The notes: generated by a model not told the origin, from the sequence alone. Positions 6,906 through 64,000 are shown, counted from the first letter of the stretch. The stretch: 64,000 nucleotides of DNA from an uncultured Thermodesulfobacteriota bacterium (GCA_964347335.1 CAYFYO010000003.1:6180-70179), one strand, 5' to 3'. Program-made: numbers and translations.

Positions 6906-9479
6906 GTGGATCAAAGGATCGATCAGATTTTTCCCCTCGTATCTTGCCCAGCCCGTTACATGGGTGGGGAAAAGAATGCCGTCCAGAGGCCTTCTGACCA
7001 CGTCGAACTCCGGGTTGCCCTCGCCTTTCCCGATGTTTACGAGGTGGCCATGTCTCATGTGGGATTGGATATTCTGTACAACATCCTGAATCGAAGAGAG
7101 AATACTATCGCCGAACGGGTTTTCGCCCCATGGCCCGATATGGAAGGTCACATGAGGGCCAGAGGGATCCCTCTCGTAACACTCGAATCCTCTCGCCCCC
7201 TGCGGGATTTCGATGTTGTCGGCTTTTCACTCCAGTACGAACTCAGTTACACCAACCTTTTGAACATGCTCGATCTTGCTGGAATTCCCGTCTACGCCCG
7301 AACCCGTGGTGACGAATTTCCACTCGTGATCGCCGGTGGACCCAGCACGACTAATCCCGAGCCTATCGCAGACTTCTTGGATGCCGCCGTGATTGGAGAG
7401 GGCGAGGAGGTCATTTTGGAGATCTGCGATCGTGTCATCGAAGGAAAAAAGAATGGACGATCAAAAGCATCCCTGTTAGACGAACTCTCGCAGATCGAGG
7501 GGGTTTACGTCCCCTCCCTTTTCCATGTGGACTACCATAAGAACGGGAAGGTCAAGAGGATCGTTCCCCTTCGGGAGGATTACGGTCATGTCAGGAGAAG
7601 GATTGTTCACGATCTCAATAATATCTCCTATCCGACCGATCCCGTCGTGCCATGGTTGAAAGCAATCCATGACCGGCTGAGTGTTGAAATCGCCCGTGGA
7701 TGCAAGCGGGGCTGTCGATTTTGTCATGCGGGGTATATTTATCGCCCGTACCGCGAGCGAAGACCGGAAATCATCGAGGATATCATCAGAAAATCGCTTG
7801 ACACAACGGGCTACGAAGAGCTCTCTTTCCTCTCCCTCAGCACTGGAGACTATGGGGACATCGAGACCCTTCTCGCCAGGGTCATGGACCATTGTCAGAG
7901 AGGAAATGTGGCCCTTTCCTTTCCATCCCTTCGGGTGGAGACGCTAAACTCGGAGATGGTCCAGCAGATCAAAAGGGTTCGAAAAACAGGATTCACTTTG
8001 GCTCCGGAGGCAGCGACAGAGAGGCTGAGGCGGGTCATCAACAAGGAAATGGACGAGGAGAATCTGCTCGAGACAGCGAGAACGATTTACCACCATGGCT
8101 GGAACCTCATCAAACTCTACTTTATGATTGGCCTCCCGACCGAAACCGATGACGACGTGAGGGAGATGATTCATCTGGCCGAAAAGGTTCTCAAACAGGG
8201 CAAAGGGCTTAAGAGGCCCCCCCGCCTCAATGTGAGCGTATCGACCTTTGTGCCGAAACCCCATACCCCTTTCCAATGGGAACCCCAATTCACGCTGCCA
8301 GAGATACGTCTCAGACAGGAACTGCTTCAGAAAGGATTGAACTCTGGGAGAATCCGGTTCAAGTGGCATGACCCTAGGATGAGCCTTTTGGAGGGAGCAT
8401 TCTCCCGGGGCGGCAGGGAATTGTTTCGAGTCATTCACGATGCATGGCAAATGGGGTGCCGATTCGATGGCTGGAGCGAGTCTTTCAATTGGAAACGCTG
8501 GCTGAAAGCCTTTGAGAGGAATGGCATTGCCATCGATGCTTACACCCGACGCAGGGGGTTTTCTGAAATCCTCCCATGGAGCCATATTAAGTGCGGGGTT
8601 ACCGAGGGGTTTCTCAGAAATGAATGGGAGCGGTCCAGGGGGGAAGCCGGAACGCCTTCGTGTCGGACGGCGTGCACGGCATGTGGGATATGTGATGGAA
8701 AAGAAACCGCGGTGGTCTCTTGGAAGAAGCGCGAGAACCCTCCCGTCTCGACGATGCCCGTCCGAAAAAAAGGGGAGAAACCCATCACCCTCATCTTGGA
8801 ATTCGAGAAAGCAGGCCCTGCCAGGTTCCTGGGCCATCTCGACATGGCGAGAGCATTTCATCGTGCTGCGAGACGAGCGCGCATTCCCCTTCGATATTCC
8901 CAGGGCTTCCATCCTGCCCCCAGGATAAGTTTTGAAAGCGCTTTGGCCCTTGGCCTGGAGAGTCTGTGCGAGAAGATGAAATGGCAACTCGACATCCCCG
9001 TAGCCGATGAGTTGCTCCTGGCCGGAGTGAATCGGGAACTGCCTCCGGGACTCCACATCAAGCGACTCCTCCATGTCGGAGGAAAGCACCGTTTTGTCGG
9101 AGGAGCCGAGATGTGGTATCGGTACCTCGTGGCATTTCCCGAGGGTGTGTCGATGAGGCTTCAAAATCGGGTTCAGGAGTTCCTTGCGAGTGACCGATGG
9201 ATCGTGTCATGGGATGGGAAAGAACAGGAATATAACATCCGGCCCCATTTCGAATCGGTGATCCTTGCCAATGCGGTCTCTCTTGACGAATCTGTGATGG
9301 ATGTCTGGGCCGACCTTATCTGCGAGAAGGCGGGCTTTCTGGAAGTCATATTTCATCGAAGAGACAACATGAAGATTCGGATTGACAGAGCCCTCAGCAC
9401 AATGCTGTCTCTATCTGAGGAAACGAGGAGCCAGATCAGAATTCTCAAACTCGATGGGGCGAGCGCTCATGGTCGCTGA
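6906..9479 (+). CDS. radical SAM protein, B12-binding/rSAM domain fused to DUF2344-like C-terminal domain (TIGR03960/TIGR03936-type)
   Basis: GTG start; CxxxCxxC motif ARGCKRGCRFC; MGGEKN N-terminus; classic partner of RNase E/G genes; 857 aa. Confidence 0.8.
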   Translation: MDQRIDQIFPLVSCPARYMGGEKNAVQRPSDHVELRVALAFPDVYEVAMSHVGLDILYNILNRRENTIAERVFAPWPDMEGHMRARGIPLVTLESSRPLRDFDVVGFSLQYELSYTNLLNMLDLAGIPVYARTRGDEFPLVIAGGPSTTNPEPIADFLDAAVIGEGEEVILEICDRVIEGKKNGRSKASLLDELSQIEGVYVPSLFHVDYHKNGKVKRIVPLREDYGHVRRRIVHDLNNISYPTDPVVPWLKAIHDRLSVEIARGCKRGCRFCHAGYIYRPYRERRPEIIEDIIRKSLDTTGYEELSFLSLSTGDYGDIETLLARVMDHCQRGNVALSFPSLRVETLNSEMVQQIKRVRKTGFTLAPEAATERLRRVINKEMDEENLLETARTIYHHGWNLIKLYFMIGLPTETDDDVREMIHLAEKVLKQGKGLKRPPRLNVSVSTFVPKPHTPFQWEPQFTLPEIRLRQELLQKGLNSGRIRFKWHDPRMSLLEGAFSRGGRELFRVIHDAWQMGCRFDGWSESFNWKRWLKAFERNGIAIDAYTRRRGFSEILPWSHIKCGVTEGFLRNEWERSRGEAGTPSCRTACTACGICDGKETAVVSWKKRENPPVSTMPVRKKGEKPITLILEFEKAGPARFLGHLDMARAFHRAARRARIPLRYSQGFHPAPRISFESALALGLESLCEKMKWQLDIPVADELLLAGVNRELPPGLHIKRLLHVGGKHRFVGGAEMWYRYLVAFPEGVSMRLQNRVQEFLASDRWIVSWDGKEQEYNIRPHFESVILANAVSLDESVMDVWADLICEKAGFLEVIFHRRDNMKIRIDRALSTMLSLSEETRSQIRILKLDGASAHGR

Positions 9480-10986
9480 GCTTATTATGAATGCCTCTTT
9501 GGAGGAAACCCGGGTAGCCCTCATTGAGGGGGGCACGGTTGTGGAAGTCCATATCGAGAGAAACAAAGATCGGAGCATTGTGGGGAACATTTATCGGGGC
9601 AGAACGGTGAAGGTTCTTCCGGGCATGCAGGCGGCCTTCGTGGATATCGGCCTGGAGCGCGCGGCCTTTCTGTATGTTTCGGATGCCTATAGCAGCATCA
9701 AGGAGTATTCTCAAATGTTGAATGAGGGTTTTGAGGATCAAGATGCGCTTGAGCTTCAGTCTCCCCATCCCTCCTTCATCGAATCTGTGCAGATTGAAGA
9801 CGTCGTTCGCGAGGGCCAAGAACTTCTCGTCCAGGTTTCTCGGGAGCCTCTAGGAACCAAGGGGACCCGAATCACTTCCCATATCAGCCTTCCGGGACGA
9901 TACCTTGTCTTCATGCCAACGGTGGATCACATTGGGGTTTCGAGACGAATCAGAGACGAGTCCGAAAGGCATCGGTTGAGGGATATTGTACTCGCTGTCA
10001 GACCTCCAGGTGCAGGATTCATCGTCAGGACAGCCAGTGAAGGGGCCCATGAAGAAGAATTCCGGAATGATATGGAAATGCTGACAAAAATTTGGGAAAA
10101 CGTTCAGCGCAAAAATGACGGGGCGCCGACTCCCAGCCTGATTCACAGCGATCACGACATGGTTCTGAGGGCGATCCGGGATCTGATTACACCGGATGTA
10201 AAGCGTGTGGTCATCGATTCAGCAGAGGACTACGAAAGGATAATTCATTTTGTCGAGACCTATATGCCTCGCATAAAATGCGACATCGATCTCTATACGG
10301 GGAGGACCCCAATCTTCGATGCCCACGGCATCGAAACAGAGCTAGACAAAGCTCTGAAGCGCAAGGTCTGGCTGAAGTCTGGTGGACACATCCTCATCGA
10401 GATGACAGAGGCACTGACGGCCATTGACGTGAATACAGGCAAATTCGTCGGGAAGAGGAATCTCGAAGAGACAATACTGAAAACCAACCTCGAGGCCGCC
10501 AAGGAAATTGCTTATCAGCTTCGTTTGAGAGATATCGGCGGTATCATTATCATCGATTTCATTGACATGGAGAAAGATTCGAATCGGGAAATGGTTCATC
10601 AGGCTCTCGAACTCGCCTTAGCAAAGGATCGCACCAAATCGAATATTTCGAAAATATCCGAGTTAGGGCTCGTTGAGATGACTCGGAAAAGAACGAGAGA
10701 GAATCTTAGCCAGCTCTTGGGAGAGACCTGTCCCCATTGTGAGGGGCTTGGATATGTGAAGTCGAAGACAACGATTTGCTATGAGATTTTTAGAGAAATC
10801 GAACGAATCTCCTCCGATCTTGGCGGCGATACAGTTATGGTCGACGTCAATCCTGAAGTTGCCGAGATGCTTTGCGACGAGGAAAGAGCAGGCATAGAAC
10901 ACCTCGAAAGGAAGTTAGGTAAGAGAATCGTCGTGCAGGAGATACCTCGCTTCGAGCAGAGTGAATTTGAGATTGTGGACGTGTGA
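9469..10986 (+). CDS. rng: ribonuclease G (Rne/Rng family, S1 domain)
   Basis: MVAELIMNASLEETRVALIEGG...GNIYRGRTVKVLPGMQAAFVDIGLERAAFLYVSD aligns with the E. coli RNase G N-terminus; ATG overlaps the upstream stop by 11 nt. Confidence 0.9.
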   Translation: MVAELIMNASLEETRVALIEGGTVVEVHIERNKDRSIVGNIYRGRTVKVLPGMQAAFVDIGLERAAFLYVSDAYSSIKEYSQMLNEGFEDQDALELQSPHPSFIESVQIEDVVREGQELLVQVSREPLGTKGTRITSHISLPGRYLVFMPTVDHIGVSRRIRDESERHRLRDIVLAVRPPGAGFIVRTASEGAHEEEFRNDMEMLTKIWENVQRKNDGAPTPSLIHSDHDMVLRAIRDLITPDVKRVVIDSAEDYERIIHFVETYMPRIKCDIDLYTGRTPIFDAHGIETELDKALKRKVWLKSGGHILIEMTEALTAIDVNTGKFVGKRNLEETILKTNLEAAKEIAYQLRLRDIGGIIIIDFIDMEKDSNREMVHQALELALAKDRTKSNISKISELGLVEMTRKRTRENLSQLLGETCPHCEGLGYVKSKTTICYEIFREIERISSDLGGDTVMVDVNPEVAEMLCDEERAGIEHLERKLGKRIVVQEIPRFEQSEFEIVDV

Positions 10987-12052: not shown

Positions 12053-13114
12053 ATGAGATTCATCGATCGTGCCAAGGCCTATGTCCGCGCCGGTAATGGG
12101 GGGAATGGCTGCGTTAGTCTTCGGAGGAAGCGATTCCAACCCAAGGGGGGGCCCGACGGAGGGGATGGGGGCAAAGGAGGAGACGTTATCTTTGTCGGCG
12201 ACGCTCAGATGGCGGGTCTCCACGATCTCTCTTCTCGTCCTCGCCTCATCGCCCAGGACGGACAACAGGGCAAGGGGAATAACCAATCCGGAAGGGATGG
12301 CCACGATCTAGTCGTTCGCCTTCCTATAGGTACGCTCGTGATTGACGCGAGGACCAATGATGTTCTAGAGGATTTGAACGAGGACCAGAAGAGATTCTTG
12401 GCAGCACGGGGAGGACGTGGAGGTCGTGGCAATGCAAGATTTGTCACGCCTTCAAACCAGGCCCCGCGGCGGGCACAGAAGGGAGAGAAAGGAGAGGCCC
12501 GCTGGCTCAGGTTTGAATTGAAACTTGCCGCGGACGTCGCACTCATCGGCCGCCCAAATGCGGGAAAGTCCACCCTTATCTCCAAGATCTCCTCGGCCAG
12601 ACCCCGGATTGCCGACTATCCTTTCACGACGAAATCGCCTCACTTGGGAGTCGTGAGGTACGGCGACTTCAAGAGTTTCGTCGTCGCTGATACACCCGGT
12701 TTGATTGAGAACGCCCACCGAGGGTGTGGCCTCGGAATAGATTTTCTCAAGCATGTGGAGAGAACGGCACTCCTTGTCCATGTCCTCGATATCACACGAC
12801 TTCCCGATCAAAGTCCTCTCGAAGATTATGAGATTCTCATAAGAGAGCTCGGGGCCTTCAGCCCTGCACTTCGAGAAAAACCCCATCTGGTTGCCATCAA
12901 CAAAGTGGATCTACTCGATTCCTCTCAGCCATTGGAGGAAACCGAGCGGATATTTGCAGAATTGGGTATCAGCCCCCTTCCGATCTCTGCCCTCACGGAA
13001 AAGGGGCTCGGTGTTTTGGTTGAAGAAATCGCACAGAGGCTCGAAGAACTAAAACCCATTGTCTCAGAGAGAGGATCCATTGGCACGCAAGAACCCTCGA
13101 CCCGGCATCTTTAA
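12053..13114 (+). CDS. obg: GTPase Obg/CgtA
   Basis: Glycine-rich Obg fold N-terminus (RAGNGGNGCVSLRRKRF, GGDGGKGGDV), G1 GRPNAGKST, G3 DTPG, G4 NKVD. Confidence 0.95.
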   Translation: MRFIDRAKAYVRAGNGGNGCVSLRRKRFQPKGGPDGGDGGKGGDVIFVGDAQMAGLHDLSSRPRLIAQDGQQGKGNNQSGRDGHDLVVRLPIGTLVIDARTNDVLEDLNEDQKRFLAARGGRGGRGNARFVTPSNQAPRRAQKGEKGEARWLRFELKLAADVALIGRPNAGKSTLISKISSARPRIADYPFTTKSPHLGVVRYGDFKSFVVADTPGLIENAHRGCGLGIDFLKHVERTALLVHVLDITRLPDQSPLEDYEILIRELGAFSPALREKPHLVAINKVDLLDSSQPLEETERIFAELGISPLPISALTEKGLGVLVEEIAQRLEELKPIVSERGSIGTQEPSTRHL

Positions 13115-53770: not shown

Positions 53771-54418
53771 TCAACGCGCTTTACGCCCAAAAAACCGGTC
53801 GTAGAGATCGTCAAAAAGAACAGGGATTCTTCTGTGGAATTCTTTGAGGAGGGGAAGCATCAGTTCCCGAATCTGCGGGTGGGCTTGGGAGCTGCAGCGA
53901 AGTCCGAGGACATGCCGCCACTCACGGAGGTTGCATGTCATGACGACCTCCGTTTTCACCGAATTCGGAAGTACGCTTCTGGCTTCCTGCGGCGTAGCCC
54001 CCAGTTCGATAAGCTTCATATAGTGTGTCTCCGAAGCCTGCATCGCTTCTTCCCATTGTCGGTAGGCGGCAACGTCTCGAGACCAGAAAAGGGGTTTGAT
54101 GACCGAGATTTCATTTCCGAATCGATCCTGACTGTAATTGGCGTAACGCGTGCTCTCTTGACTATATGATGCCAGGCGATGGCGCACGAGTTCATGGCTG
54201 ACGCCCCGATCACAGGTGAACTTGACGCTGATCGAGATGTGTTCGATGACGCTGTGGTGACCGGATTTTATGATCCGCCTGATGAAATCCGATGCCGAAC
54301 CGGCGGTGATTCGATGCTCAGACTTATAGCATGTTCGGCCCGCTCGCTCGAGCTTCGCAAGAATCGCATCTGCATCAATGGGATCGAGTATTTCGAAAGA
54401 AGGTTCAACGATTTTCAT
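53771..54418 (-). CDS. thyX: flavin-dependent thymidylate synthase
   Basis: ThyX signature RHRLASYSQESTRY (RHRxxSxxxxSxR). Confidence 0.9.
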   Translation of the reverse strand: MKIVEPSFEILDPIDADAILAKLERAGRTCYKSEHRITAGSASDFIRRIIKSGHHSVIEHISISVKFTCDRGVSHELVRHRLASYSQESTRYANYSQDRFGNEISVIKPLFWSRDVAAYRQWEEAMQASETHYMKLIELGATPQEARSVLPNSVKTEVVMTCNLREWRHVLGLRCSSQAHPQIRELMLPLLKEFHRRIPVLFDDLYDRFFGRKAR

Positions 54419-54633: not shown

Positions 54634-57354
54634 CTACGAGCACCCACTCGTCGCACCACAGTTGAGGCATTTGTAACACGAACCATTCCGAACCATAATG
54701 GAACCACAGTCAGGGCAGGGAGGAGCGTCTTCCTGGGCAGCAAAGGAGAGGCCTTTCCCCCTATCTCCTTCAGACTCATCCGGCAGCTGTTCCGGAGCGC
54801 CCTCAACAAGCACCCCAACCTCGGCCTGTTCCTCCTTGGTGAGGAACTTCGAGGCGAGCCAGCGGAAGATGTAATCACTGAGAGATTTCGCAATGGCGAT
54901 CTGAGGATTCTTCGTGAACCCCGAGGGTTCGAAACGGGCATGTGCGAATTTATTGACGAGAACCTTCAAAGGAACTCCATACTGAAGCGTCAGAGAGACA
55001 GCCGTGGCAAAGCAATCCATAAGACCCGAAACGACGCTTCCCTCCTTGGCAATCACCACGAAAATCTCCCCTGGAGTCCCATCATCATACATCCCAACCG
55101 TTATATAACCCTCGTGATTCCCGATGCTAAACTTATGGGTGAGGGATTTTCTCTCATCAGGAAGACGACGGCGATAGGGGGTTCCCTTAATCTGAAGGTC
55201 CCCCTCCTGTCTCTGACTTAGCGGCTGGGTCCGCTTTGAGCCGTCTCGATAAATAGCCACCGCTTTCAGACCGAGCTGCCATGCCTGGATATAGGCTTCG
55301 GCAATCTCGTCAACTGTCGTTTCATTTGGCACATTGATGGTCTTTGATATGGCACCTGAGATAAACGGTTGAACGGCACCCATCATCTTAATGTGACCCA
55401 TATAATGAATCGATCGACTCCCAAGAATAGGTTTGAAGGCACAGTCAAAAACGGGCGCGTCCGTCTCTTTCAGGTGAGGAGCCCCTTCGATGGTCTCCCT
55501 TTTGTCCAGGAACTGGAGAATCTCCGTTTTCTCCTCCTCGGAATAACCCAACCGATCAAGAGCCCGAGAAACGGTATTGTTGACAATTTTGAGAACGCCA
55601 CCCCCCACAAGCTTCTTATATTTGATGAGTGAAATATCGGGCTCAATCCCTGTCGTGTCACAATCCATCATAAAGGCGATCGTTCCCGTCGGGGCCAAGA
55701 CCGTTACCTGAGCATTCCGGTACCCGTGATCCTCACCTTCCTCGATGGTTTTTTCCCAAACCTCGTGAACGGCGCCCAGCAATTCCAAGGGAACATATGC
55801 CGAGTTGATCTTAGAAACGGCTCGGTGATGTCTTCGCATCACCTCAATCATCGGTTTCCGGTTCCGCTCAAACGCCTCAAAAGCGCCCATGGCTTTGGCA
55901 ATTCTCGCAGACGTCAGATAGGCCTGTCCGGTCATAACTGCCGTAATAGCCGCCGCGTAGTTCCTTCCGGACTCACTGTCATATGGAAGACCACGCGCCA
56001 TGAGCAGCGCCCCGAGGTTGGCGTATCCCAAACCAAGAGGCCGGAATCTGTGACTGTTCTTGGCGATCACCTCCGTCGGGTAGCCGGCATTGTCGACGAT
56101 GATTTCCTGGGCGAGGATCATAATCCCGACTGCATGGCGAAAGGCTTCCACATCAAACTCCCCCTCCTCGCTCAGAAACCTCAGAAGATTCAGGGAAGCC
56201 AGGTTACAGGCCGAGTTATCGAGAAACATATATTCGCTGCACGGATTGGACGCATTGATTCTTCCGCTATTGGTACAGGTGTGCCAGTGATTGATGGTCG
56301 TGTCAAACTGCATACCCGGGTCACCAGAGATATGGGTTCCCTCGGCAATCAGGCGGAGTATCTCCCGAGCCTCGTATTCCCCCATCACCTCCCCAGTTAT
56401 GACGGCCCGGGTCTGCCAGGTTCCATTGTCCAACACGGCCTTCATGAATTCATCAGGAACTCGAACACTATGGTTGGCATTTTGAAAAAAGACGGATCCA
56501 TAAGCCTCACCGTTGAAAGAGCCATCATATCCCGCGTCGATCAGGGCCCATACCTTCTTCTCTTCCTCCTTCTTGCTGTTGATGAACTCCACAATGTCAG
56601 GATGATCCACATTCAGGATGACCATTTTGGCGGCTCGGCGAGTCTTACCGCCTGATTTGATCACACCGGCAAACGCATCGTACCCTTTCATAAAGGATAC
56701 AGGACCCGATGCCGTGCCACCCCCCGAAAGATATTCCTTCGAAGAGCGAAGAGGAGAGAGGTTTGTGCCCGTACCAGAGCCATGCTTGAAAAGCATGCCC
56801 TCAATCTTCGCCAATTCGAGGATCGACGCCATAGAATCCTCGACGGAATTGATAAAACATGCAGAACACTGCGGCTTCTTTTCGATACCGCAGTTGAACC
56901 AAACCGGGCTATTGAACGAAGCCATCTGAAAAAGAATCAGATATGTGAGTTCATCCTGAAAGGTCTTGCCGTCTTCCGGTGAGGGAAAGTATCCCTGACT
57001 CACACCCCATTGGGTTATCGTATCGACGACTCTTCTGATCAGCTGACGAAGGCTCGACTCCCTCTCAGGAGTTCCCTGAATCCCACGAAAATACTTCGAG
57101 GCAACTACATTAACTGCCATTTGGGACCAGAAGGAGGGGAACTCCAGGTCATCCTGCTCAAAAACCTTTTCTCCACTTTCGTTCACAATGGTCGCACGCT
57201 TACGTTCCCATTCCACCATGTCGAAGGGAGAAGTCTCCTTTTTCGTGAAATAACGACGGACGGTCACATCTTTCGGGGCTTCCTCTGAACGTCTCGCTCC
57301 GGATTCAGATTCTTTGCGCTGCAGATCGCGCTTGGGCATCTTCTCCTGACTCAT
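54634..57354 (-). CDS. nrdJ: adenosylcobalamin-dependent (class II) ribonucleotide reductase
   Basis: NrdJ homology, C-terminal zinc ribbon CPDCGS...CYKCLNCG; start MSQEKM behind RBS AGGAGGGGG (ORF-track ATG is 48 nt further upstream). Confidence 0.9.
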   Translation of the reverse strand: MSQEKMPKRDLQRKESESGARRSEEAPKDVTVRRYFTKKETSPFDMVEWERKRATIVNESGEKVFEQDDLEFPSFWSQMAVNVVASKYFRGIQGTPERESSLRQLIRRVVDTITQWGVSQGYFPSPEDGKTFQDELTYLILFQMASFNSPVWFNCGIEKKPQCSACFINSVEDSMASILELAKIEGMLFKHGSGTGTNLSPLRSSKEYLSGGGTASGPVSFMKGYDAFAGVIKSGGKTRRAAKMVILNVDHPDIVEFINSKKEEEKKVWALIDAGYDGSFNGEAYGSVFFQNANHSVRVPDEFMKAVLDNGTWQTRAVITGEVMGEYEAREILRLIAEGTHISGDPGMQFDTTINHWHTCTNSGRINASNPCSEYMFLDNSACNLASLNLLRFLSEEGEFDVEAFRHAVGIMILAQEIIVDNAGYPTEVIAKNSHRFRPLGLGYANLGALLMARGLPYDSESGRNYAAAITAVMTGQAYLTSARIAKAMGAFEAFERNRKPMIEVMRRHHRAVSKINSAYVPLELLGAVHEVWEKTIEEGEDHGYRNAQVTVLAPTGTIAFMMDCDTTGIEPDISLIKYKKLVGGGVLKIVNNTVSRALDRLGYSEEEKTEILQFLDKRETIEGAPHLKETDAPVFDCAFKPILGSRSIHYMGHIKMMGAVQPFISGAISKTINVPNETTVDEIAEAYIQAWQLGLKAVAIYRDGSKRTQPLSQRQEGDLQIKGTPYRRRLPDERKSLTHKFSIGNHEGYITVGMYDDGTPGEIFVVIAKEGSVVSGLMDCFATAVSLTLQYGVPLKVLVNKFAHARFEPSGFTKNPQIAIAKSLSDYIFRWLASKFLTKEEQAEVGVLVEGAPEQLPDESEGDRGKGLSFAAQEDAPPCPDCGSIMVRNGSCYKCLNCGATSGCS

Positions 57355-57444
57355 TCCGTACCCCCTCCTGATATTGAACGACCGCCTCCTTGACGGCCAC
57401 AATAGTATAAATTAGTCCAATCGATCGCCCGTGTCAAGCGAAAA

Positions 57445-60244: not shown

Positions 60245-60952
60245 GTGAAACCCCGGTTGGTTAAGACATTGGAGGCATTAACCAGACGACCCGATCAGCC
60301 TTTCACATTCGATGAGATCGTCCAAGATATGGGAGCAGGAAAGCATAAGACAACACTCGCGCTTCGTTATCTAAAAGAGAAGGGACTCATCGAGAAGGTC
60401 GTCGATGGGGAAAAATGGAAGCTCAGGGACAAGGCCTTTCCCACTATTGAGGCAATGTTATCTGTCTACCGAAAGGTGAAAAAGAAAAGGCCATCTAAAT
60501 CTGTCCTTCGGTATCTCCTCGCCTCATGCCCCTTCCGGCTGGCGGTCTTCCTCGAAAATGTTAAGGAACAAGGCTTCACGAGGAGAGAAGGACTCCAGTT
60601 CCTTAAAGAGGAGGGGCAGCGAGGGTATCTGAAAGAAGCGGTTATGCTACTGTTGGGCCTACAGATGGCTCACCTCGAATCTTTTCGGTTTTATGCCCGG
60701 GTGAGGTTTGTTAACCCGGAGGAATTTCGTTCGTTCAGGGCCCGATGTGAGATGAAGAGGCTGGATTTTATCGAGGAGGAATTCCTCGTCGGTCAATACC
60801 CTCCCACCATTGTTGAGCAGGCCCGAAGCTATGTGGAAAGGAACGATCACCGTTCCTTGACGCAGAATCCCAGTACGTGGTTTTTTGTCCAAGAGTTTCG
60901 AAAGCGAATCTTGGGCCAACCGGAAAACCCGGTTTACGGGGTCTGCTATTGA
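60245..60952 (+). CDS. hypothetical protein with N-terminal winged-helix-like domain
   Basis: 235-aa ORF, GTG start; N-terminus resembles MarR/TrmB-type wHTH (TFDEIVQDMGAGKHKTTLALRYLKEKGLIEKV); remainder unrecognised. Confidence 0.45.
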   Translation: MKPRLVKTLEALTRRPDQPFTFDEIVQDMGAGKHKTTLALRYLKEKGLIEKVVDGEKWKLRDKAFPTIEAMLSVYRKVKKKRPSKSVLRYLLASCPFRLAVFLENVKEQGFTRREGLQFLKEEGQRGYLKEAVMLLLGLQMAHLESFRFYARVRFVNPEEFRSFRARCEMKRLDFIEEEFLVGQYPPTIVEQARSYVERNDHRSLTQNPSTWFFVQEFRKRILGQPENPVYGVCY

Positions 60953-61041
60953 AAGGGCCGCGTCGACTGCCTTTTGTCCCCGCTTCGCCACCCAAGGATA
61001 ACGCTCCAAGCATTTTGGAAGAAAGCCAAGAGAGGACCCGT

Positions 61042-62610
61042 ATGAAAAGGCAGAAACAGGCAGACAGGCGGCGACTCTCGGAAGAGAAACGCCTGAGAGC
61101 ATACCGGCCAACTCCCATTGTGACACAATTGAAACACACGGTTCTCAATAGGCTCAGTAGAGGGGAGGACGTGATTCCGACGATTGACGGCAGGCGAGAA
61201 ACCAAGGACGACGTTATCCGTGTAATCCTTTCAGGGGCTAATCTCTATCTCGTATCCGAGGAAGGGACGGGCAAGACACGGATGGCCCGGTCAATCGCGG
61301 CGCTTCTCCCTCCGATCCCTGTCATTAAGGGGAGCCCATACAACGACGACCCGAAATGGCCTCGGCATTTGCGCTCGCCATGGTGCCAGGAATTCGAGGA
61401 CCCCGTCAGGGAGCTGGGCATCGAGTGGCTTTCTGGCATCAGGCGTTTCTCCAGGATTCAGGGGAACGAGTACACCAATGAGGCGAAGCTCCTCGGATTG
61501 AAGGATATTCAAGCGATCGCCCAAGGACGGAGTCCCTCCGATCCATCGGTATTTACGGGAACAGGGGTGTTTCGAGCGAATCGAGGGGTGCTTTTGATCG
61601 ACGAGCTTCCGGCGATTCGGACACGAGTCCAAGTGCTTCTTCATCCGATTCTCGAGGAAAAGAAAGCCATTCTTGAAGAATACAACTGGGAGTGGCCCCT
61701 CGATATCTTTTTCGTTGCGACAGGAAACCCGGAGGGATTCTCCCATGTGAACGATGTGCCCCGGCCCCTGATGGATCGGCTGGAAACGGTCTACATGGAT
61801 CTTCCCGAAGAAAAGATCGAAAAGGAGATCATGCTAAAGGAGAGGTTCCAAGAGCCCTCTTGGAGCATGGATGCCTCGCTCGCACAGGCCCTTGAGGAGG
61901 CCACCTTCCAGGATTCTCCCGAATCGACGGAAGCGGAGGTTTTGACCCCCTGGTGGATCTTGGAAGTGATCAACAAGACCGTGAGGCTGACGCGGGAATG
62001 CCCTCGACTGGACAAGAAGGCCACGATCCGGGCAACGACCCGGGCTTTTGATCATACTCGGTCGACTGTCCAGATGAATCTGAGAAGAGTGGCGACCCTC
62101 GCCGACTCTCTCTCTGGCCTCAAACTCGCGTTGCGGAGCCGTGTGGGCCTTCAACCCGATGCCGTGGATTTTGATAACCCTCGGGAGAACTTCAGGACGA
62201 TCGACCGAATTACCGAGGACGTCCTCTCCTTGGCCATGGAAGACCTGGCGGAGGAGTTTTTCAAAAAGGTCCGACCTGACAGGGAGGGAACAGCACTCAA
62301 AGCCGAAGTCGATCGCCTGGTCAAGGCGGGGTATCCCAAAAACGCTCGAGGTCTCGCGGCCTGTCCAGAGGTTTCAAATCTTGTGGGACGGCTGAAAAAA
62401 ATGGCACCCGAAAAAGCAAACCTCACCTTGCTCTCGGACAATGAAAAGGCGCTTTTTACACGTCCCCAGTCCCTCGACAATCAAATCACGGATGAATATG
62501 ACCGCTCCGCCATCGAAATGGTCGTGAACCTGGCTGCTTCAAGAGGAATCCTGAATGGCAACCAGGTGCGCCCCAGTTTCTTTGTGCCGAAGAAATTCGA
62601 TGAATCATGA
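61042..62610 (+). CDS. ChlI/BchI-like (Mg-chelatase subunit I family) AAA+ ATPase with about 190-aa C-terminal extension
   Basis: Walker A SEEGTGKT, LLPxIxVxxGxPxN insertion, Walker B LLIDELP, sensor/arginine block VATGNPEG...PLMDRL as in BchI/ChlI; RBS AGAGAGGA before ATG 61042. Confidence 0.6.
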   Translation: MKRQKQADRRRLSEEKRLRAYRPTPIVTQLKHTVLNRLSRGEDVIPTIDGRRETKDDVIRVILSGANLYLVSEEGTGKTRMARSIAALLPPIPVIKGSPYNDDPKWPRHLRSPWCQEFEDPVRELGIEWLSGIRRFSRIQGNEYTNEAKLLGLKDIQAIAQGRSPSDPSVFTGTGVFRANRGVLLIDELPAIRTRVQVLLHPILEEKKAILEEYNWEWPLDIFFVATGNPEGFSHVNDVPRPLMDRLETVYMDLPEEKIEKEIMLKERFQEPSWSMDASLAQALEEATFQDSPESTEAEVLTPWWILEVINKTVRLTRECPRLDKKATIRATTRAFDHTRSTVQMNLRRVATLADSLSGLKLALRSRVGLQPDAVDFDNPRENFRTIDRITEDVLSLAMEDLAEEFFKKVRPDREGTALKAEVDRLVKAGYPKNARGLAACPEVSNLVGRLKKMAPEKANLTLLSDNEKALFTRPQSLDNQITDEYDRSAIEMVVNLAASRGILNGNQVRPSFFVPKKFDES

Positions 62611-62783
62611 GAAACGACCAAATCCGCCTCCACTGTTCCGAGAGTTCCGGGCCCCCACCTGTCAGCGCGGGTCCACAAGGTCTAGAAATCCCGCGGAAGT
62701 AAACGGTTTGTGCGACTTCGTAAAACCCTCGCGTCTTTAAGCGAGATTGCGGAAGGGGTAGGGAATCCATCCGAGAATACCTG

Positions 62784-62812
62784 TTGACAAATCAATTTCT
62801 GTTCGTTATATA
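62784..62812 (+). promoter_or_regulatory. sigma70-like promoter driving the cobalamin riboswitch leader
   Basis: TTGACA-17 nt-TATATA(CT). Confidence 0.5.
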
Positions 62813-62821
62813 CTGAGTCAC

Positions 62822-63075
62822 GAAATGTTTGGGTGTAGGGAAGACGGTGAGAAGCCGTCGCGGACCCGCCGCTGTGAGTGGGGACGAAAGCCACAGAGTG
62901 GGCCACTATTTCGCTCGAGCGGAATGGGAAGGCGTGGTGAGTAGGAGGATCCACGAGCCAGAAAACCTGCCCAAGACGTTGCTCCAAAAACATTCCTCGA
63001 GGGGTGGGAATATGGAGTCGGCGAGGGAAGTCGGTCTGATCGCAATCCGGGGTCAGGCTTTTTTTGTCTTCGAGA
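62822..63075 (+). ncRNA. cobalamin (B12) riboswitch, cis-regulatory leader
   Basis: GGGAAGACGGTGAGAAGCCGTCGCGGACCCGCCGCTGTGAGTGGGGACGAAAGCCACAG core and B12 box GAGCCAGAAAACCTGCCC; T-run GGCTTTTTTTG about 63058-63068. Confidence 0.75.
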
Positions 63076-63231
63076 GCGTTCAAGCGCCCTCCATTTGACC
63101 AATCTCCTTTTCCCAATATCCCTCTCTTTCTCTATTGCACTTGTCTGGGACACGAATACCAGGTCAGCGCAAAGACCTTCTATTCATATGGAACTTCCTG
63201 TCCCTAAACTGAGAAGTCAAAGGAGAAGACC

Positions 63232-64000
63232 ATGGCAAGATGGCTAAAGTTCAAGTTTTTCGCGACCCCTCTGACCCAGGCTATCGGGTCAGACGGCTCG
63301 AACACCGAGCTCGCAATACCCGAAGTGCGGGGGAGCGATGCCCGGAATCGGTTCATTCACCGCTGGAACGCTTGGGCCATGCTATCCCTCGCACTTGTCT
63401 CAGGCCCGGCTCTGGCTCAGGAGAAAGAGGAGGTACCTATCCTGGGAGAGGTCGTGGTCACGGCAACACGAAAAGAGGAGGAGATCCGTAAGATTCCGGC
63501 AAACGTGACGGTCATCACCGAACAAGACATTGAGAACTCCAACGCCAAGACCGTCGCCGATCTGCTGCGATCTGAAGAGGGCATCGTTGTGAGAGACCTT
63601 ATTGGGAATGGAAAGAGTGCACAAGTCGACCTTCGCGGTTTCGGAGAAACGGCACCCTCCAACACCCTGGTGCTCGTTGACGGGCGGCGGGTCAACGAAA
63701 TCGATCTCAGCGGCGTCGATTGGACACAGATCCCCCTGGACCAGATCGAACGAGTCGAAATTGTCCGGGGCAGCGGGAGCGTTCTGTTCGGGGATAACGC
63801 CGTGGGTGGCGTGATCAATATCATCACGAAAACCCCCGCCGAGAAAGTGACCATGAGGGGTGAAATTCTTGCCGGGAGCTACGGACGAATTAGAGAAGAA
63901 GCATCGATCAGCGGAGGCTATGAGAACGTGGCCGCTTCCCTCTCTGGCAGCTATGACTCAACGAATGGGTACCGGGAAAACGGTGAGTTTCGGACGAGAG
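63232..64000 (+). CDS. TonB-dependent outer-membrane receptor (BtuB-like), 3'-truncated by window edge
   Basis: RBS AAGGAGAAG before ATG 63232 (not in ORF track because the frame is open at the window end); signal peptide AMLSLALVSGPALA/QE; plug domain with TonB box VVVTATR and IERVEIVRGSGSVLFG. Confidence 0.8.
   Translation, partial: MARWLKFKFFATPLTQAIGSDGSNTELAIPEVRGSDARNRFIHRWNAWAMLSLALVSGPALAQEKEEVPILGEVVVTATRKEEEIRKIPANVTVITEQDIENSNAKTVADLLRSEEGIVVRDLIGNGKSAQVDLRGFGETAPSNTLVLVDGRRVNEIDLSGVDWTQIPLDQIERVEIVRGSGSVLFGDNAVGGVINIITKTPAEKVTMRGEILAGSYGRIREEASISGGYENVAASLSGSYDSTNGYRENGEFRTR

Follow-up and report, generated by a model that had tools for sequence, protein, structure and literature searches.

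A cobalamin riboswitch, an intrinsic-terminator-like hairpin and an extended leader peptide at a TonB-dependent receptor gene of an uncultured Thermodesulfobacteriota bacterium

Which signals govern the TonB-dependent receptor gene that runs off the end of a 64,000-nt stretch of DNA from an uncultured Thermodesulfobacteriota bacterium (GCA_964347335.1 CAYFYO010000003.1:6180-70179), where does its translation begin and what does its product import? This whole stretch, examined on one strand, is referred to here as the window and, judged from its relatives, the host genome is of Thermodesulfobacteriota type. The locus is very probably a corrinoid-repressed receptor gene that forms a single-gene unit with its own promoter, cobalamin riboswitch and terminator, and that is translated from an extended start at the ATG at 63232. 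Ever since the E. coli btuB leader was described, it has been textbook knowledge that cobalamin riboswitches can precede TonB-dependent corrinoid receptors, and the combination found here is of this well-known kind, with nothing that is new in kind. The only feature that a specialist might not expect is an extended leader peptide that is specific to the clade.

Orthologous loci were sought in GTDB representative genomes, where the best match was L001, an uncultured Thermodesulfobacteriota metagenome-assembled genome (MAG) with 73% identity. In addition, metagenome contigs were scanned with a 25-nt element located 3' of the aptamer (the P13 element discussed below), which retrieved 11 loci (L084-L094). 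One of these contigs, L090, is identical to the window in 2318 of 2318 nt (window positions 61683-64000) and reaches 3.1 kb beyond it. The regulatory region was compared in an alignment of 11 clade sequences, termed A2, that extends from the promoter to past the terminator. Its elements are the following:

62784-62789, plus strand: -35 hexamer TTGACA, read directly and invariant in 11 of 11 clade members
62807-62812, plus strand: -10 hexamer TATATA, of which TATA is invariant and positions 5 and 6 vary (TATAnn in relatives)
62814-62988, plus strand: full-length cobalamin riboswitch aptamer (RF00174), from a covariance-model match
62955-62972, plus strand: B12 box GAGCCAGAAAACCTGCCC, which in the RF00174 consensus aligns with the conserved stretch GAGCCAGGAGACCuGCC
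62982-63017, plus strand: P13-like split hairpin (CUCCA/UGGAG and AUUCC/GGAAU) right after the 3' strand of P1, from a predicted fold
63033-63065, plus strand: intrinsic-terminator-like hairpin (arms 63033-63041 and 63051-63059) with U7 at 63059-63065, from the minimum free energy (MFE) fold
63099-63114, plus strand: pyrimidine block CCAATCTCCTTTTCCC, conserved in A2 about 35 nt past the U-run

The aptamer is matched by the RF00174 covariance model over its entire length (model positions 1-189 of 189) with 97.2 bits against a gathering score of 31.5 and an E-value of 5.2e-23, a strong result in the very scan that a preliminary description of the window had named as decisive for its reading. 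At the Rfam gathering thresholds no tRNA, rRNA or family other than RF00174 was found in the whole 64 kb. The riboswitch core GGGAAGACGGTGAGAAGCCG...CCCGCCGCTGTGA sits at conserved positions of the model alignment and, together with the B12 box, is as quoted in the preliminary description. Both the GGGAA/GGUG core and the B12 box occupy the expected structural positions, and the latter is nearly invariant in A2. Corrinoid binding and gene control by the aptamer are supported indirectly, by its conserved position upstream of orthologous genes.

The riboswitch is overlapped on either strand by mechanically called open reading frames (ORFs) 89-144 aa long, at 62682-63116 and 62818-63153 on the minus strand and at 62829-63098 on the plus strand. 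A public gene call of 119 aa without a Pfam match covers the riboswitch of L082 (177-536, minus strand) and is probably spurious.

The two promoter hexamers are separated by exactly 17 nt in all 11 clade sequences while the spacer sequence and the flanks vary. The TTGACA-17-TATATA motif described earlier as a promoter is present at 62784-62812 and kept as TTGACA-17-TATAnn in 11 of 11 relatives. The pattern TTGACA-N17-TATA occurs once in the 64 kb, where 0.04 occurrences would be expected. Transcription is expected to start about 7 nt past the -10 hexamer, just 5' of P1. A rule-based sigma-70 scan of the window reported no promoter at 62784-62812, because its rule demands a T at position 6 of the -10 hexamer. 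Likewise, a rule-based terminator scan of the window did not report the hairpin at 63033-63059, whose 9-nt loop exceeds the limit of 8 set in that scan. Since fixed rules exclude a promoter and a terminator that are comparatively supported, conservation and pair counts were relied on instead. A second candidate promoter in the leader (TTGACC at 63095-63100 followed by TATCCC) was dismissed by eye, its -10 element not being conserved in relatives.

The T-run that the preliminary description had placed after the riboswitch consists of seven T at 63059-63065 and is preceded by a stem of 9 bp closed by a 9-nt loop, which begins 15 nt past the P13-like hairpin and has a predicted stability of -11.9 to -17.9 kcal/mol across relatives. 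A GC-containing hairpin with an adjoining U-run, as is characteristic of intrinsic terminators, is found at 63033-63065. All nine pairs of the stem are formed in every one of the 11 sequences (100% of cells paired), with two compensatory and four wobble-changed pairs, and pairing falls to 31-55% in a control in which the 3' partners are shifted by one to three columns. This covariation argues for a functional helix, and a run of U5-U7 follows the stem in all 11 sequences.

Upstream of the terminator, the P13-like hairpin of the window and of most relatives has a predicted stability of about -10.7 kcal/mol. Its loop is G-rich (UCGAGGGGUG) and the L5 loop of the aptamer is C-rich (ACCCG, approximately 62863-62867), so that by inspection ACCCG of L5 and GGGG(U) of L13 are complementary. 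In the repressing corrinoid riboswitch of Priestia megaterium metE, mutational analysis has shown that a kissing loop stabilises P13 and thereby lets the terminator form (PMC10327014). By analogy with that study an L5-L13 kissing loop is a candidate pairing here, and it would fit known cobalamin riboswitches. P13 has one and the same sequence in the window and in the independently found L001 and L082, and L083 deviates from it at a single loop base; in L084-L094 the invariance of P13 is built in by the search pattern with which these loci were retrieved.

The gene downstream of this leader is described by four features:

63220-63225, plus strand: Shine-Dalgarno (SD) sequence AAGGAG, separated by a 6-nt spacer from the ATG at 63232-63234, read directly
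63232-64000, plus strand: TonB-dependent receptor gene, first 256 of 707 codons, from the translation, completed on L090 (1550-3673)
63448-63471, plus strand: TonB-box-like motif EVVVTATR (aa 73-80), by inspection of the translation
63484-63813, plus strand: Plug domain PF07715 (aa 85-194), E-value 1.1e-27, 97 bits against a cut-off of 23.9

About 155-165 nt lie between the T-run and the SD sequence. A strong ribosome-binding site (RBS) followed by a receptor with TonB box and plug had been described before, and AAGGAG with the ATG at 63232, EVVVTATR and the Plug match bear this out, as does the reading frame that indeed runs off the window. The TonB-box-like motif is kept across the family as (E/T)VVVTATR and aligns with the N-termini of mature BtuB and CirA in the Protein Data Bank (PDB). 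When completed on L090, the receptor has 707 aa, with a PF00593 beta-barrel at aa 265-671 (E-value 4e-41) after the Plug domain and a C-terminus ...EGTF that ends in phenylalanine. The beta-barrel on which the preliminary description had staked its identification is thus found in the extended frame.

The association of this receptor with the riboswitch extends well beyond the clade. All 16 related loci that were scanned have RF00174 immediately 5' of the receptor ortholog, and they come from Thermodesulfobacteriota, Nitrospirota (among them a Thermodesulfovibrio yellowstonii MAG) and Omnitrophota. In the loci L027, L030, L053 and L020 a receptor of the same family (47-75% identical to the query across the part that matches) is preceded by the same riboswitch, has an ordinary signal peptide and is continued by cobU-cobS-cobT-btuF-like genes or by exbB-exbD-tonB; downstream of the receptor ortholog, L027 encodes CobU, CobS, CobT and a periplasmic binding protein that is BtuF-like, and L020 encodes ExbB, ExbD and TonB. 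The gene of the window, in contrast, stands alone and is extended. Downstream of it in L090 there are a short ORF and then genes on the opposite strand. Further, a B12-dependent class II ribonucleotide reductase that includes a TSCPD domain is encoded in the window at 54634-57402 (minus strand), 5 kb upstream, so that the organism needs the cofactor which the receptor is proposed to import.

Some further observations were made at these loci. The ribonucleotide reductase gene adjoins one for ThyX (53771-54418, minus strand). The small ORF downstream of the receptor begins about 30 nt past its stop codon in L090 (3703-3837, approximately 65385-65519 in window numbering and outside the window) and is cut to 44 aa. 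L001 (12092-12415), L092, L093 and L085 have a homologous small ORF downstream of the receptor, with a length of about 107-108 aa as judged from alignment to L001 and L092, and no Pfam or NCBIfam match was found for it. L011, a Desulfobacterales MAG, carries three cobalamin riboswitches within about 4 kb (8086-8276, 9595-9880 and 12098-12294), one before the receptor ortholog and one to either side.

It is proposed that a sigma-70-type promoter would start the transcript a few bases 5' of the aptamer P1. Upon binding of a corrinoid, probably of the adenosylcobalamin type, L5 would dock on the G-rich loop of the P13-like hairpin, and in the docked state the hairpin with U7 at 63033-63065 would end transcription upstream of the receptor RBS. 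When corrinoid is scarce, readthrough would allow the outer-membrane receptor to be made. Translation from the ATG at 63232 would then yield a bipartite leader of 62 aa, composed of the extension and a canonical Sec signal peptide, the ancestral start 36 codons downstream of this ATG having been lost. Because no conserved antiterminator was found, the OFF logic of this scheme is drawn from the layout of the leader and from the biology of uptake genes.

A number of results weigh against this reading. In the promoter, the -35 hexamer is perfect and the -10 hexamer TATATA matches TATAAT at only four of six positions and lacks the final T. In the expression platform, which the preliminary description had suggested folding in search of a terminator or antiterminator, only the former was recovered: no antiterminator is conserved in folds computed without the 3' arm or restricted to the stretch that begins with the 3' side of P13 and ends with the terminator 5' arm, and weak and non-conserved pairings alone appeared in them (a 4-bp GAUC/GAUC helix and GUCGG with the terminator 5' arm). 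The alternative pairings with that arm fall short of the terminator in strength, the complete leader folds no more stably than shuffled sequence (z -1.33), and P13 is without covariation support as its sequence never varies, partly owing to the way the loci were retrieved. As for the receptor, no btuFCD or cob genes lie downstream of it in the genome of the window as represented by L090; the preliminary description had looked to such genes as a check, and they are present in more distant orthologous loci. The receptor also does not reach the cut-off of the BtuB equivalog (TIGR01779 / NF007926), the barrel of the L001 ortholog fits siderophore-receptor models better than the BtuB model, and among PDB sequence matches E. 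coli CirA is about equal to BtuB, both being among the top ones.

Of the competing explanations the one that survives best, albeit an unlikely one, is that control is not, or not solely, exerted by termination. The hairpin with its U-run would then act as a pause site or as a partial terminator that is constitutive, and the pyrimidine block at 63099-63114 would pair with the 3' strand of P13 in the absence of ligand, leaving the SD sequence free, or with the SD sequence in its presence, thereby masking it. The block, which may have a role in regulation, is the only conserved leader element downstream of the terminator, the rest of the leader being poorly conserved. It is the best predicted partner of the P13 3' strand in 8 of 10 sequences, with -16 to -20.5 kcal/mol versus -11 to -16 kcal/mol at the next site. 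In the MFE fold of the window it pairs with this strand while the SD sequence pairs with a nearby CU tract, and the failure to find an antiterminator would also suit a translational model. However, cognate pairs of block and SD sequence average -15.0 kcal/mol versus -13.3 kcal/mol for non-cognate ones and 83 of 720 permutations are as good, which is not significant, and masking of the SD sequence by the block is therefore kept as a rival only. Moreover, any CU-rich tract pairs with any SD sequence, the invariant P13 offers no covariation, and the covarying terminator stem speaks for a functional helix.

Corrinoid-dependent termination thus remains the preferred account of the leader, and the question that follows is where translation of the receptor starts. 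The features concerned are:

63232-63339, plus strand: N-terminal extension (aa 1-36), MARWLKFKFFATPLTQAIGSDGSNTELAIPEVRGSD, an open frame in 10 clade sequences
63329-63342, plus strand: remnant of the ancestral SD sequence (GGGGGAG) and lost start GCC (63340-63342), aligned to L001
63340-63417, plus strand: canonical signal-peptide part ARNRFIHRWNAWAMLSLALVSGPALA, cleavage predicted after Ala62, from the family alignment

The unusually long N-terminus noted in the preliminary description is real and occurs throughout the clade, with the correction that 62 aa rather than 64 precede the predicted cleavage site between ALA and QE (AxA rule), and a hydropathy peak at aa 46-56 lies within the signal-peptide part. 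In the wider receptor family, signal peptides of 20-30 aa come straight after their own SD sequence and align with the part encoded at 63340-63417. The sequence GGGGGAG...GCC of the window aligns to AAGGAGG...GTG of L001, and the ancestral start site reads AAG in L081, L082 and L086 and AGG in L084; it is still ATG in L083, which keeps both start codons. The extension is borne by 10 sequences (the window, L081-L086, L088, L092 and L093), each of which has an in-frame ATG 35-40 codons upstream of the canonical site and an SD-like sequence 5' of it, the latter weak or poorly spaced in L082 and L086. Within their first 38 codons the receptor frame has no stop, versus 25 and 13 stops in the other two frames; for a single lineage the chance of remaining open is put at about 0.13, with about six of the lineages being independent. 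Differences in the length of the extension amount to whole codons. Its omega of 0.4-1.1, versus 0.08-0.3 for the mature part, is nearly neutral and resembles that of the canonical signal peptide. Conservation is seen in a basic-aromatic motif that occupies the extreme N-terminus (LKFKFF, GRFVYW, LRFFW, RLSYFW) and in the weakly hydrophobic stretch behind it. L001, with 81% identity to the window, has a stop or stops in frame upstream and begins at the canonical start, and as it is nearer to the window than most extension-bearing members its short state looks like a reversion.

The long N-terminus might nevertheless not be made, translation starting internally (at GTG 63325 or ATG 63379) or a 1-nt assembly error lying near ATG 63338, so that the signal peptide would have about 27-31 aa. 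The ordinary signal peptides of 20-30 aa in the wider family are in line with this, as are the SD remnant GGGGGAG before the lost start, the position of ATG 63338 only 2 nt out of register, and the almost neutral evolution (omega up to 1.1) of an extension without a family match. It is nonetheless quite improbable, since the independent contig L090 carries the identical sequence, nine further members of the clade retain an upstream start in frame, without stops and with whole-codon length changes only, and L081, L082, L084 and L086 each independently lack the canonical start. Furthermore, GTG 63325 and ATG 63379 have no SD sequence, and a start at Met50 would leave the signal peptide without a charged n-region. 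An assembly frameshift at ATG 63338 was rejected, L090 being identical and the frames of the clade being open. From these comparisons it is concluded that the extension is translated and that the long N-terminus is real and common to the clade.

The extended leader recalls the ESPR (PF13018) of type V secreted proteins, which is likewise a bipartite leader of about 60 aa with a charged N1 and a weak H1 segment ahead of an n-h-c signal peptide (N1-H1-N2-H2-C). It differs in that the carrier is a TonB-dependent receptor and not an autotransporter, that the middle of the extension is nearly unconstrained and that there is no profile match: Pfam searches with five clade N-termini gave neither ESPR nor any other match to the extension at E<=10. 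A literature search for TonB-dependent receptors whose signal peptides are long or extended returned incidental co-mentions alone, and none of the papers covered connects such leaders with these receptors. It is a tentative possibility, held with more doubt than confidence, that the corrinoid receptor of this clade took over an upstream start within its own riboswitch leader and so acquired a conserved 60-aa two-part ESPR-like export leader, independently of type V secretion, and that the leader may join termination control with a translational layer acting through the pyrimidine block. In a distant Acidobacteriota homolog (L080, 1252-1440) the predicted cleavage site also seems to be preceded by at least 53 aa, so that long leaders may have evolved repeatedly in the receptor family.

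With the extended start at ATG 63232 retained, there remains the question of the substrate. The best NCBIfam model for the plug in the window fragment is TonB-B12 (TIGR01779), with 139.3 bits against a cut-off of 599.7, and the full-length L001 ortholog scores 136.6 bits against the same 599.7, with the plug region alone matching. As these scores are far below the cut-off, the receptor is not to be filed as BtuB proper; the term BtuB-like used in the preliminary description can stand for a probable function and not for membership of the NCBIfam equivalog, and a BtuB-like mode of action is suggested by the genomic context. That the receptor carries a non-corrinoid substrate of siderophore or metal type (for example cobalt or a corrinoid precursor) and is merely under B12 control is very improbable, for although the sub-threshold BtuB scores, the L001 barrel that fits TonB-siderophore models best, CirA as the top PDB sequence match and JGI homolog names reading 'iron complex outermembrane receptor' point that way, the riboswitch accompanies the receptor family in all 16 loci and three phyla, operons of relatives join the receptor with cobU, cobS, cobT and a BtuF-like binding protein, the plug has TonB-B12 as its best NCBIfam model, and the 'iron complex receptor' names are generic automatic labels. 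Most likely, therefore, the receptor imports corrinoids.

Set beside known systems, the locus resembles btuB of E. coli and Salmonella in having a cobalamin riboswitch of the same Rfam family in the 5' leader of a receptor with TonB box, plug and beta-barrel, and in the presumed logic of uptake repressed by the cofactor. The enteric btuB leader acts mainly on translation. Here, by contrast, an intrinsic terminator follows the aptamer, the leader is about 240 nt longer, the leader peptide has 62 aa, and the mature receptor is longer with 645 aa versus 594 aa for the BtuB chains in the PDB. The layout is also that of P. megaterium metE, with an aptamer, a P13 with an internal loop, a loop that could kiss L5, a short linker and a terminator that does not overlap P13 (PMC10327014), although the regulated gene and the phylum differ and no comparable conserved pairing was found here.

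On the other side of the promoter, just upstream, lies a gene for an AAA_5/Mg-chelatase-like ATPase (60877-62610, plus strand) with weak matches to BchI/BchD and putative cobaltochelatase models. It is preceded by one for a 235-aa protein without a family (60245-60952, plus strand), also just upstream of the riboswitch promoter. L001 has ORFs of like size and position (7839-9404 and 6987-7691), of which the ATPase alone was scanned and gave similar family matches.

For the receptor family, the analysis provides a likely substrate for proteins that are publicly labelled 'iron complex receptor', and the link between riboswitch and receptor holds across Thermodesulfobacteriota, Nitrospirota and Omnitrophota. 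For the clade, the extension offers a clean natural case in which a start codon has shifted upstream and now lies in a regulatory leader, L083 having both starts and L001 appearing to have reverted. Should the extension have an effect on targeting or translocation, it would represent an extended signal peptide outside type V secretion.

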